This document shows positions 2,160 to 4,699 of a stretch of 38,471 nt of DNA, piece by piece. Each line of letters opens with the position of its first letter. Position 1 is the stretch's first letter. Source of the stretch: a virus; the UHGV virus genome UHGV-0091782; one strand, 5' to 3'. The notes under the pieces were generated by a model. The model saw only the letters and a program-made list of their open reading frames with translations, had not been told where the DNA came from and did not search any database. The position numbers were made by a program, and so were the translations under genes.

Positions 2160-2231
2160 TTCAATATTCGCACTATTGGAAGTTCACCAGCCAGCCACAG
2201 CACGTTCTTGCATACAACGTGCCTGCGGTTT
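2160..2231 (+). repeat. 72-bp direct repeat, copy A (85 percent identical to 4628-4699), ends in hairpin plus T-run
   Basis: ttcaatattcgcactattggaagttcaccagccagccacagcacgttcttgcatacaacgtgcctgcggttt aligned base by base with copy B: 61 of 72 identical. Confidence 0.6.
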
Positions 2232-2756
2232 TTGAGACCGTCCTGATCTACATATAACTCATAAACTTACCTCTAAAATCGAGAAAATTGTTTATTGTTT
2301 GTACTCAGTTTTTTCAGCGCGTTACGTTAATCATCTATGTCATTTTCTCATCATTTCTTTAAAGTATTGAGATAAGACTAGATAACTTTCCTGATGTGAA
2401 TGGATGTCAGATCACCGGACTATTATCATCAATGAGCCTTCTGAATATGGCGAAGGCTAAAAGTCCGCTGTGAGCGAGGAGCGGACATTGCTAACAGCAT
2501 TATTTGTAAAGCGACGAAAAACAGGTCAATATTGCTTCTGAGGACGATAAGCACTAAATTCTTAATTGAATAAAAACTGGTTAAAGAACCTATGGGCTGA
2601 TTAAATTCCTAGTGACAAGAGTTAAGCCATAGCAAATGATGCTATACATAATTATTGCTCCTGCTTGCAAAAGGGAGTAATTTCAAACCTCCCTAACAAT
2701 AATTAAATAGCATCAGAAACGCTTTGCTGGGCCTGGTTATGTCTTCATATTGAAGT

Positions 2757-3740
2757 TCATTTTTGTTTTAGCTTGATAATTTCCGATATTATGTTTGTTA
2801 GCTTTGAATCTGAAAGATTCTGCAGTCTATCTTTCTCAATAGAAACTGTAGTCTGTCCCTTTTCTAATATGAAATTTCTTTCTGTCTTCATCAAGTGCAT
2901 AGCCAACTCTTTTATCATATCTTCGCTCTTGAACTCTTGAACATATTTTAATGACATAACTTTCATCTCAATATTTGTAATTTCATTTTGAAAATATTTA
3001 ATCTCGTCAAACCCATTTTTATAGAGACGCAGAAAGAAATAAGCAAACAGCTCAACAACAATTACAAATGACAATTTAGGAAGGTGATGAATAAAAAAGT
3101 CCAAACCATCTACTATGGCTGGAGCGCTGTAAAGAAAATAAGCAAGGAATAATATCCCTGTTAACGCAATTGTAGTTCCGATTGCAAGGTTAACCCCACC
3201 TCGTCGATTGAGCCTGTCAATTTCGGACTCTAATCTTAGAACCATATCAGTATGGAGTTTGTGTAAGCTATAGCTTTTCTTAAAATTTGATATATCGGTC
3301 TTTAGGCTACTATCTGCCAAGAGTATTGTGTTTCCAATTATTCTTTTTTTTGCATCGGATATTAATTTATTTCTTTCGCTTTCCGTTAATTCAACTGAAA
3401 CCCCAGAAGACGACTTTTCTTCAACCTCAGTCAACCTTCTATGTAATCTCAATATCTCCTTGTGAAGAATATGGCTCGTTCTTTCAATACTTCTACCGCC
3501 AATCCCTTTATTTAGATAAGAGGTCATCGCAGTAAAAAAAATGCCAAGGAATGTCGCAAAAACTGACAAGTATAAAAAGAACCTCTTTTTCTCGCTTATA
3601 ACTTCTAATAGTGCTAATGATGAAGCTTGAACATTTGAAAACAAAAACAAAAGCACTAAAAAAATGGCTATAAACATTGTTGCTATAGTAATAAAATGTT
3701 TTCCTGAAAGATAAATTATAAAATCAATAATATTTTTCAT
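2757..3740 (-). CDS. AT-rich membrane protein (327 aa): predicted 4 TM helices, two on each side of a charged coiled-coil segment; candidate superinfection-exclusion or abortive-infection effector
   Basis: ORF track; hydrophobic stretches near residues 15-35, 54-75, 183-205 and 222-240; G+C visibly far below the phage core; bracketed by the 72-bp repeats and tRNA-Pro-like modules. Confidence 0.55.
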   Translation of the reverse strand: MKNIIDFIIYLSGKHFITIATMFIAIFLVLLFLFSNVQASSLALLEVISEKKRFFLYLSVFATFLGIFFTAMTSYLNKGIGGRSIERTSHILHKEILRLHRRLTEVEEKSSSGVSVELTESERNKLISDAKKRIIGNTILLADSSLKTDISNFKKSYSLHKLHTDMVLRLESEIDRLNRRGGVNLAIGTTIALTGILFLAYFLYSAPAIVDGLDFFIHHLPKLSFVIVVELFAYFFLRLYKNGFDEIKYFQNEITNIEMKVMSLKYVQEFKSEDMIKELAMHLMKTERNFILEKGQTTVSIEKDRLQNLSDSKLTNIISEIIKLKQK

Positions 3741-4038
3741 TTTATTTTCATCCCGAAGTGATTTTGGGTAAAATAATTGAAAAGATGATAAATTGCAAGA
3801 TTCACATTACTATTTAATTTAAAATGACTATACTTCTCCGTACATTGATATCCAATCTTAGACGGGAAAAACTTCTTAGTCAGCTAAAGCCAATGCTACC
3901 CTTTCTATCGAATCCCCCTCTGATCTAACATATACAAGCGTCAACCCATCGGCAGTGATAATTCTATGAGGATGCCTAAAAACAAGCCCCTGAGGTGCTC
4001 CCCGCTCATTAAGACAATACATCTTGCAACTCTGCTTT

Positions 4039-4120
4039 TGGCACATAGCAGCCTTCATGGCAGTAGCACTCCGTCATGGGGTGTCGGGGGTCGGAGGTTC
4101 AAATCCTCTCGTGCCGACCA
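4039..4120 (+). tRNA. tRNA-Pro(GGG)-like sequence: 3' 50 nt (4071-4120) canonical and ending CCA, 5' half divergent with a disrupted D-arm; probably a pseudo-tRNA or att fossil rather than a functional gene
   Basis: ccgtcatggggtgtcgggggtcggaggttcaaatcctctcgtgccgacca matches my recollection of E. coli proL from the anticodon arm to CCA; upstream part tggcacatagcagccttcatggcagtagcact is only partly tRNA-like (acceptor 6 of 7 pairs, D-stem does not fold). Confidence 0.35.
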
Positions 4121-4130
4121 AAAACCCCTT

Positions 4131-4160
4131 AAAAACCAGCCTATTATGGCTGGTTTTTTT
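4131..4160 (+). terminator. Rho-independent terminator (stem ccagcc/ggctgg, 6-nt loop, 7-T run; A-run upstream makes it potentially bidirectional)
   Basis: aaaaaccagcctattatggctggttttttt directly after the tRNA-Pro-like CCA end. Confidence 0.6.
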
Positions 4161-4627
4161 ATGATTGTTTTTTATGCGGAGAAATACCGGGGAATAATTG
4201 GGGTAAAACACCTTGAGGCTATTCACTTAGCCTACCACCATCAAAATCTTTCCGAATGTATCCATCTCTTTTTTCTTATGCAGCTAAAACGAAGTCTTGA
4301 TACTGTTTATTTACACAGATAAGAATAATACTGTCTACAAACGCAGTACAAAAGAAGTGTTATGCATATTGAGATCTCCATAGCCAAAGACAAAATGACC
4401 AAATGCCAAACGGCGCTGTGGACGCGTTAAAGGAAGAATTAACCCAACACATTGGCAAGCGTTATGACGATGTGGAGATGATCGTAAAAGCCACCAGCAA
4501 CGATAGTTTTTCAGTTAGACATACTGCAGATAAAGATTGAGCTAAAACTTTCGTTCAGGAAACTCTGAATGATACCTGAGAGTCTACTGAAGAGTTGTTT
4601 GTTCACTAGTTAGCACGTAGGAAATTA

Positions 4628-4699
4628 TTCAATACTCGCACTATCGAACATTCACCAGCCAACCGCAGCACCTTCTTGCATGCGACGAGCCTGCGGTTT
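4628..4699 (+). repeat. 72-bp direct repeat, copy B (partner of 2160-2231)
   Basis: ttcaatactcgcactatcgaacattcaccagccaaccgcagcaccttcttgcatgcgacgagcctgcggttt; contains stem ccgcag/ctgcgg followed by a T-rich tail. Confidence 0.6.

Follow-up and report, generated by a model that had tools for sequence, protein, structure and literature searches.

The window analysed here is a stretch of 38,471 nucleotides (nt), the virus genome UHGV-0091782, and the feature under study is a pair of direct repeats that flank an AT-rich membrane-protein gene near its left end. The original prediction, made from the sequence, described them as 72-bp repeats, 85% identical, each with a hairpin and a T-rich tail, and this description is borne out: positions 2160-2231 and 4628-4699 are identical at 61 of 72 bases, and the hairpins lie at 2195-2228 and 4663-4696. 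The ungapped match reaches 79 nt (2153-2231 versus 4621-4699, 67/79 or 84.8%; within-window BLAST E-value of 4e-21), and the longest run shared exactly by both copies is 11 nt. According to an nhmmer family profile, the repeats constitute the 3' four-fifths of a longer module of ~98 nt, called the unit below, which runs from GTAAAATC to the base of the hairpin and whose homology ends sharply at both edges. We consider it likely that each repeat is a diverged and partly decayed copy of a non-coding terminator module of the lambda-like phages of Escherichia and Shigella. The two copies and their hairpins are as follows:

2134..2231, + strand: unit copy 1, the full-length module (nhmmer profile positions 1-98), GTAAAATC...CTGCGGTTT, containing 2160-2231
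2195..2233, + strand: hairpin of copy 1 with TTTTT, CCACAGCACGTT / AACGTGCCTGCGG, with one A.C mismatch and one bulge, as read from the sequence
4617..4699, + strand: unit copy 2 (nhmmer profile positions 16-98), containing 4628-4699
4663..4706, + strand: hairpin of copy 2 with the tail TTTCATTTAT, the outer stem CCGCAG/CTGCGG intact and two mismatches in the inner stem

The alignment of copy 2 starts at profile position 16 because its first ~15 nt have been replaced by the end of a dinI-like pseudogene, and the same truncated junction of dinI and unit recurs in three viral contigs (L066, L069, and L145). Unit copy 1 is homologous to the copies in phi458 and in the b region of lambda. Both units lie in the accessory region of a prophage, between its left attachment site and the tail-fibre genes, where the order is HEPN gene, tRNA-Pro-like relic, unit 1, membrane-protein gene, hybrid tRNA-Pro-like element, terminator, dinI-like pseudogene, unit 2, invertase pseudogene, Acyl_transf_3 gene, and tail-fibre assembly gene.

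A sensitive BLAST search with copy 1 found the unit in 5,410 of 5,426 complete E. coli genomes, at 16,354 places in all, with a median of 3 and a maximum of 10 per genome; the source genome of the window has 4. The search with copy 2 returned 195 phage records, among them HK97, HK106, HK75, HK633, lambda, and many Stx-converting phages. When one genome per GTDB species was scanned for the exact pattern, the matches lay in Escherichia or Shigella contigs and, additionally, in contigs of unrelated taxa. The latter mostly bear the lambda copy and some are ~48.5 kb long, and they are therefore most likely lambda DNA contamination; the exact lambda version was seen in low-coverage contigs of ~48.4-48.5 kb and in short contigs of Pseudomonas, Shewanella, Streptomyces, Enterococcus, and others (e.g., L020, L026, and L049). 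Every inspected copy is located within a prophage or a prophage remnant: Qin, Rac, the remnant next to ykgJ with dinI and tfa fragments, HK97, lambda, and the Stx phages. On the grounds of this location and of the low copy number, a repeat of the REP, ERIC, or BIME type was rejected. As in the case that the original prediction named as its refutation, the repeat is common and multi-copy, but the unit is prophage-borne and neither REP- nor ERIC-like. Its occurrence elsewhere is not tied to the membrane-protein gene, which essentially removes the proposed association with a membrane-gene cassette. No Rfam family exists for the unit, the whole window at the gathering score and positions 1-5200 at E<=10 giving nothing at the units, and the MG1655 annotation has nothing at the three K-12 copies (at the Qin end, in the ecpE-ykgJ spacer, and, hairpin-only, at the Rac end). 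A search of the literature for the unit sequence as text gave nothing relevant.

For the family sample 255 loci were fetched, giving 283 copies, with 108 distinct full-length variants and 25 partial ones. The module consists of a highly conserved 5' part of ~60 nt and a GC-rich hairpin of 11-14 bp, usually followed by a U-tract. Among the sampled copies it is preceded by at least 16 unrelated sequence classes and followed by at least 26. The commonest upstream context is the 3' end of a dinI-like gene (67 of 204), the second is a decayed tRNA-Pro-like sequence (45/204, with eight more copies in three smaller classes judged tRNA-like by eye), and further ones are a Qin-type prophage end (31/204) and an integrase-proximal attachment region (15/204). 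The nearest upstream open reading frame (ORF) is on the strand of the unit in 13 of 15 classes, and on the downstream side the ORFs abut the unit in convergent orientation (tail fibre, tail-fibre assembly, or invertase) or belong to same-strand cargo starting 190-430 nt away. The order is int, att core, sib, unit, and convergent tfa in HK97; int, unit, and convergent stf in HK633; ydfJ', unit, and ynfT in Qin; and ea31, tRNA-like relic, unit, and ea47 in lambda (leftward strand, 24,162-24,350). Lambda also has a hairpin-only second copy at 22,573-22,608 (minus strand), between ea47 and tfa, so that direct copies bracket ea47; both this copy and the tRNA-like relic with the unit are unannotated in NC_001416.

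The 3' hairpin forms in all 72 distinct variants that were folded, at ~-15 to -25 kcal/mol. In the covariation alignment of 48 distinct sequences, 93.9% of the cells are paired, a percentage inflated by the removal of the bulged base so as to maximise outer-stem pairing, and 6 of 11 pairs have changed on both sides, e.g., A-U to G-C or C-G, and C-G to U-A. In 500 shuffles the covariation score is never matched, and with the partner slid by 1-3 columns pairing falls to 18-57%. Per-sequence folds and this bulge-stripped alignment were used; a plain MAFFT alignment of the 108 variants misaligns the bulge and a divergent hairpin subfamily. In one subfamily the inner stem and loop are swapped for unrelated sequence, with the hairpin and CTTTTT kept. 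At least five T residues are found within 8 nt after the stem in 84 of 127 variants, the window copies having TTTTT (copy 1) and TTTCATTTAT (copy 2). Another stem, GGCUGG/CCAGCC, weaker than the hairpin, is formed around the conserved 5' part, with a few compensatory variants. At the family level the unit therefore possesses the stable GC-rich stem-loop of an intrinsic terminator.

Evidence from the cell comes from the Term-seq data for MG1655, in which orphan sense-strand 3' ends are listed at two K-12 copies of the unit (Adams et al. 2021, PMC7815308, supplementary files 1 and 3). The first end, 304212/304213 (-) in the ecpE-ykgJ spacer, was recorded in all three growth conditions with 87,904-99,298 average reads, and the second, 1632571/1632574 (+) at the end of the Qin prophage, with 2,150-3,283 average reads (PMC7815308). 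The 61-nt contexts printed for both ends are the unit hairpin, and a calibration on the thrW entry of the same table places the ends in the U-tract, 4-6 nt past the stem; the hairpin therefore defines RNA 3' ends in vivo. The end at 304213 has a Rho score of 1.44 ('No'), i.e., it is not Rho-dependent, and the filtering rule of the table implies a mapped transcription start upstream of it, within the ecpE-ykgJ spacer (PMC7815308). This end implies a short RNA, abundant and without a name, 31 nt upstream of ykgJ.

Given these data, the module would act as the 3' end of a transcript, an intrinsic terminator with a 3' untranslated region (UTR) or trailer, belonging to the integrase-side or accessory transcription unit, and it would sit at the border of that transcription unit with either the convergent tail-fibre or invertase genes or the accessory gene that comes next. 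It resembles the intrinsic terminators of phages that close morons or separate convergent operons in its covarying GC-rich hairpin, in the U-rich tail of about two-thirds of its variants, in its position at the 3' end of same-strand genes, often facing convergent late genes, and in the in vivo 3' ends in the U-tract. Moreover, various cargo genes (methyltransferase, GIY-YIG-like, ClpP-like, and lambda ea47) have a hairpin-only copy at their end. It differs from them in being one homologous module of ~98 nt reused across phages, and not a set of independently evolved hairpins. Another likeness is to lambda sib/tI: in HK97, HK633, Qin, and the circular form of the window prophage, the unit follows int on the same strand, with attP in between, and is a hairpin ending the integrase-side transcript. 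Identity with sib was rejected, the two not being homologous and the HK97 annotation showing sib as a hairpin of its own, 20 nt upstream of the unit; moreover, a sib element would be expected within ~250 nt of attP, whereas the lambda unit at 24.2 kb is 3.5 kb from attP at 27.7 kb, beyond ea59 and ea31.

The module may also serve as a joint for the exchange of phage modules, since it is conserved while its surroundings vary, and two direct copies would frequently come to flank cargo genes. Conserved boundary or linker sequences in mosaic lambdoid phage genomes belong to the modular-exchange idea. The unit resembles such linkers as a short conserved block with sharp ends of homology, the relatives differing between or beside the blocks, and differs from them in that a structure and RNA 3' ends in vivo can be demonstrated for it, so that recombination need not be the only reason why it is conserved.

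Several known RNA families were compared with the unit. True hits of CssrB (RF02799), a small RNA (sRNA) of Shigella, score 230 bits and overlap only the hairpin-only unit copy behind the methyltransferase cargo gene, e.g., L013 2551-2730 and L017 4611-4790 (E. coli ECMA0423). The window has no CssrB match at the gathering score (76 bits) or at E<=10, and the HK97 copy gives a sub-threshold match of 29.1 bits (E 3e-4) on the opposite strand. Membership in CssrB was rejected, as the matches stay below the gathering score and only ~35 of 180 nt overlap the unit; unlike the unit, CssrB mostly lies in the downstream flank of one particular context. A literature search for CssrB by name returned materials-science papers only. 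EcsR1, EcsR2, and IS009 are different, neighbouring elements, and the Rfam matches of IS009 are fragments of tail-fibre assembly genes (tfaQ, tfaR, and the remnant adjoining ykgJ). The Pas sRNAs are located near Q/holin or inside structural operons (bioRxiv 10.64898/2026.05.13.724894); no link between them and the unit was found, the text of that paper giving no sequences for comparison (bioRxiv 10.64898/2026.05.13.724894).

Besides the inflated pairing percentage mentioned above, several observations weigh against the terminator interpretation. The 5' 60 nt are more conserved than the hairpin, which a terminator leaves unexplained, and about one-third of the variants, including the full copy of lambda, have no U-tract. 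The intrinsic-terminator score of 304213, 2.78, is below the value of 3.0 above which the authors call a score 'suggestive' (PMC7815308). The counts of G.U versus A.C in the stem (27 versus 18) do not decide the strand, and by folding energy the strands are even, 36 versus 36; the terminal hairpin of CssrB is the reverse complement of the unit hairpin, i.e., it belongs to the opposite strand. Because CssrB ends in this reverse complement, the stem-loop of the unit may act from both sides, in agreement with its position between convergent genes. As to the window, both hairpins are weaker than the family consensus, that of copy 1 folding at ~-14 kcal/mol against ~-20 in typical family members, the 5' stem is lost in copy 1, and the first 15 nt are lost in copy 2. 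The whole-module folds of the window copies are no better than those of shuffles, with z of -0.72 for copy 1 and -0.15 for copy 2; the HK97 and lambda copies fold well beyond shuffles (z of -4.1 and -3.1). A simple terminator scan calls neither window copy, the loop limit of the scan being 8 nt and the loop of the unit ~9-11 nt. Poorly folding and uncalled by the scan, the window copies may be non-functional relics, although we infer that they could continue to terminate transcription. The proposal that the repeats are duplicated terminators or sRNA 3' ends is thus upheld for the family, by the covarying hairpin and the K-12 Term-seq ends, and for the window copies it stays plausible in a weakened form.

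With the 5' 60 nt so conserved and an abundant K-12 transcript end still without a name, there is some scope for a prophage sRNA not described before. The intact module is unlikely to be a trans-acting sRNA, derived from a 3' UTR or tRNA trailer or made as its own transcript, in which the 5' 60 nt would be the seed or a protein-binding part and the hairpin the terminator, and of which the window copies would be two decaying genes. Such an RNA would be in line with a 5' part that beats the stem in conservation and is non-coding, and with the very abundant ykgJ end, the listing rule for which requires a mapped upstream start; yet most upstream contexts provide no usable -35 element. A TAAAAT box is conserved at the start of the module, the best -35 match being only 2/6 or worse in the three largest upstream contexts, and a sigma-70 promoter of the unit's own is doubtful, no -35 being conserved. 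Likewise, the folding of the HK97 and lambda copies and the extra GGCUGG/CCAGCC stem with some compensatory changes would suit an sRNA, but no complementary target longer than expected by chance exists in lambda or in the window prophage, and an antisense or trans target there was rejected, complementarity being at most 10-12 nt, the chance level. Neither an Rfam family nor an annotated MG1655 sRNA corresponds to the K-12 copies, and the window copies lack parts of the module, the 5' stem and the first 15 nt, respectively. A broader proposal can be offered only tentatively, that the module represents an undescribed, abundant sRNA family of most lambda-like prophages, lambda included, acting in trans on RNAs of the host or phage or binding a protein via its single-stranded 60 nt; its source would be the 3' UTR of dinI-like or integrase transcripts or the trailer of a regenerated tRNA-Pro. 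Were this so, the orphan Term-seq end between ecpE and ykgJ in K-12 would be the first sighting of the family. The terminator module with a 3' UTR or trailer is the explanation that we continue to prefer.

The chromosome of E. coli Es_ST80_L1_NDM_10_2017 (NZ_CP031215) contains the region at 100% identity, and the genes that frame the units are listed below:

543..589, - strand: 3' fragment of thrW, the left attachment site, 34/36 identical to the thrW end at 38436-38471
1039-1971, - strand: HEPN-domain gene, the cargo proximal to the attachment site
2757..3740, - strand: AT-rich membrane-protein gene (ORF; 327 amino acids, GC 0.27-0.37), the cargo between the units
4362..4579, + strand: dinI-like pseudogene with a frameshift and internal stops (RefSeq annotation and translation), unit copy 2 lying just downstream
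4699..4863, - strand: Pin/Gin-type DNA invertase pseudogene, C-terminal helix-turn-helix domain (RefSeq), convergent on unit copy 2
38436..38471, - strand: 3' end of thrW, the right attachment site, directly after the integrase gene (RefSeq order integrase, tRNA-Thr, proA)

The presence of the thrW 3' end at both 543-589 and 38436-38471 indicates one thrW-integrated prophage, at ~590-38435. Its integrase gene (37258-38421, with a Pfam Phage_integrase match) is followed by thrW and proA, and phi458 has the same thrW attachment core and the same adjoining arm. Two differences separate the internal thrW fragment from thrW (GAGGAG versus TAGGAG and CCTCCG versus CCTACG), and thrW is occupied by two tandem elements, the prophage on the right and, on the left, a vat toxin island whose P4-type integrase is truncated (window 50-388). 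The prophage carries Mu/e14-like tail genes (ymfQ, stfP, and baseplate J). The membrane protein encoded at 2757-3740 has only sub-threshold Pfam matches, and neither it nor the HEPN protein matches a PADLOC defence model. A homologue of the membrane protein, 86% identical, adjoins the integrase of a UTI89 prophage, and related prophages hold other genes at the spot of the HEPN and membrane-protein cargo. The invertase pseudogene is separated from the tail-fibre assembly gene by an Acyl_transf_3 gene (5039-6064, 341 amino acids, AT-rich), in the position where serotype-converting phages hold genes of O-antigen modification. The translation of the invertase pseudogene, ...VAIIYDVGVSTLYKKFPVGDK / VSTLYKKFPVGDK, contains two in-frame stops, and the pseudogene is 88% identical to the invertase of phage vB_EcoM-689R6. 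RefSeq marks stfP as truncated (window 6106-7451). With the invertase a pseudogene and stfP truncated, the tail-fibre inversion switch of the prophage is probably dead.

The closeness of unit copy 2 to the invertase pseudogene bears on one more explanation, that the similarity is a protein-coding remnant, such as the 3' end of an invertase or tail-fibre assembly gene. The annotation of phi458 extends a truncated 'DNA invertase' ORF across the unit, and the last invertase codons, G-D-K-stop, give the common tail TTTCATTTATCTCC when read as their reverse complement; the tail of copy 2 includes TCA at 4699-4701, the reverse complement of the invertase stop codon. The overlap with the invertase is limited to the tail past the hairpin, though, and the intact invertase of vB_EcoM-689R6 stops at the start of the unit, homology to it ending at window position 4697. 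Every frame considered is interrupted by in-frame stops and 1-nt indels among the family variants, and the substitutions in the stem are compensatory, not third-position, which makes a coding origin scarcely credible. A small ORF of the unit itself was rejected as well, TAG standing in the only open sense frame of some variants and 1-nt indels occurring in others.

Each unit in the window is preceded by a tRNA-Pro-like sequence, and these form a second direct repeat, overlooked earlier (2041-2127 versus 4031-4117, 70% identical):

2041..2127, + strand: decayed tRNA-Pro-like relic directly upstream of unit copy 1, 56% identical to K-12 proL (alignment)
4031..4120, + strand: hybrid tRNA-Pro-like element, a diverged 5' part with a 3' part of 49 nt identical to K-12 proL, 82% identical overall
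4131..4168, + strand: strong terminator hairpin (terminator scan) that mimics the native proL terminator

RefSeq annotates an 82-nt tRNA-Pro at 4039-4120, whereas ARAGORN finds 0 tRNA genes in the window and the Rfam tRNA model has no match at E<=10. Compared with the sequence downstream of K-12 proL, 4131-4168 shows the compensatory change of CCAACC/GGTTGG to CCAGCC/GGCTGG. Taken together, 4031-4168 resembles the attachment region of a phage that integrates at proL, in its unrecombined state and lodged within another prophage. The relic at 2041-2127 is ~85-90% identical to the relics of lambda and phi458, neither of which integrates at proL, and we read it as the fossil of an ancestral proL-type attachment region that travelled with the unit. 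In the ancestral phage, the unit may have supplied the regenerated tRNA gene with its trailer and terminator; that it is the 3' flank of the host proL was rejected, since K-12 proL has a different terminator downstream and no unit.

The two copies did not arise by duplication in place, because each has less in common with the other than with copies in unrelated contigs: the identity is 94.9% between copy 1 and the copy in the viral contig L193 and ~91-92% between copy 2 and that of HK97, against 84.8% between the two window copies. Sequence comparison indicates that mosaic recombination brought them together. AR_0119 shares window positions 541-4209 at 99.2%, from the thrW fragment through the terminator, with different genes afterwards, and T309.Ta3 shares 4063-8000 at 99.6%, from the tRNA-Pro core through the acyltransferase and tail genes, in a block joined to a genuine proL beside yejM. 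The two lineages overlap only at 4063-4209, and a crossover there, outside the unit, is therefore likely; the left breakpoint of the mosaic, 4063, common with T309.Ta3, falls in the hybrid tRNA-Pro-like element. The 2.47-kb segment between the units is thus itself composite, being piecewise common to two other lineages. Copy 1 would have arrived in a block of tRNA-Pro-like relic and unit, as in lambda and phi458 (in the latter the relic and unit 1 directly abut an invertase fragment), and copy 2 in a block of tRNA-Pro core, terminator, dinI, unit, and invertase, as in proL-integrated relatives, by recombination events the order of which we infer.

A role of the repeats as substrates or products of recombination that moves the 2.47-kb segment as a unit, by homologous deletion or by a site-specific, cassette-like process at the hairpin, appears very improbable. 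CFE299, at the same vat-island/thrW locus, bears an allele with one unit and no cargo, the left flank being that of copy 1 and the right flank that of copy 2, and the 2.47-kb interval can therefore be described as a unit-bounded indel among related prophages. CFE299 is, however, an allele and not a recent deletion product, as it is only 89% identical and has its own unit variant, and the predicted deletion junction is covered at >=80% by no genome among the 5,426. The copies, 85% identical, share no exact run longer than 11 nt. RecA-dependent recombination requires a longer perfect match than this. The crossover between the two closest relatives, at 4063-4209, also lies outside the unit.

At the level of the family, the units of all 33 two-copy loci are direct and 1.0-2.5 kb apart, and the cargo between them differs (S-adenosylmethionine (SAM) methyltransferase, GIY-YIG-like, and ClpP/SppA-like proteins); the layout around lambda ea47 matches these loci, its hairpin-only copy having come from BLAST and not from the profile search. 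Such bracketing of 1-2.5 kb of varied cargo, and a homology that ends on the right at the hairpin base in at least 26 contexts, would be in keeping with a mobile cassette. The second copy at these loci is usually hairpin-only, though, with a variable left end, and the left ends of partial copies, at profile positions 16, 22, 28, 36, 38, 45, 47, 55, and 60, argue against a fixed crossover point. Integron-type core sites, read from the sequence, are absent; an integron attC site was rejected, as the hairpin base AGCCAAC...GGTTTCA misfits RYYYAAC / GTTRRRY, the left ends vary, and no integron integrase is nearby. The bracketing of cargo by direct copies fits the reuse of a terminator and recombination at a conserved block, and not a site-specific cassette mechanism. 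Of the supposed recombination scars of the 2.4-kb segment, only the unit-bounded indel seen with CFE299 endures, as insertion of the segment did not create the copies; the notion of a scar left by a mobile cassette finds mostly no support in the composite segment, the outlying crossover, the short exact run, and the missing deletion junction. The original prediction is thus supported in part, 'duplicated terminators' being broadly right and 'insertion scar' only loosely so. The unit marks the boundaries of phage modules and is not an insertion scar specific to the membrane-protein gene.

For the window itself these results are of little importance, the repeats being worn copies of a common prophage element and not markers of a mobile cassette. 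Their value, a modest one, lies at the level of the family, a structured element of ~98 nt present in nearly every E. coli genome and in the b region of lambda, and absent from Rfam and from the K-12 annotation. The unit accounts for two previously unexplained orphan RNA 3' ends of K-12, one of them very abundant. A frequent partner of the unit, even where the phage integrates at another site, is a decayed tRNA-Pro-like sequence, and this pairing records past exchange between proL-integrating phages and others. It is also a practical marker of the attachment-site-proximal accessory region, in which dinI-like genes, methyltransferases, proteases, O-antigen acyltransferases, and membrane proteins are kept as cargo.

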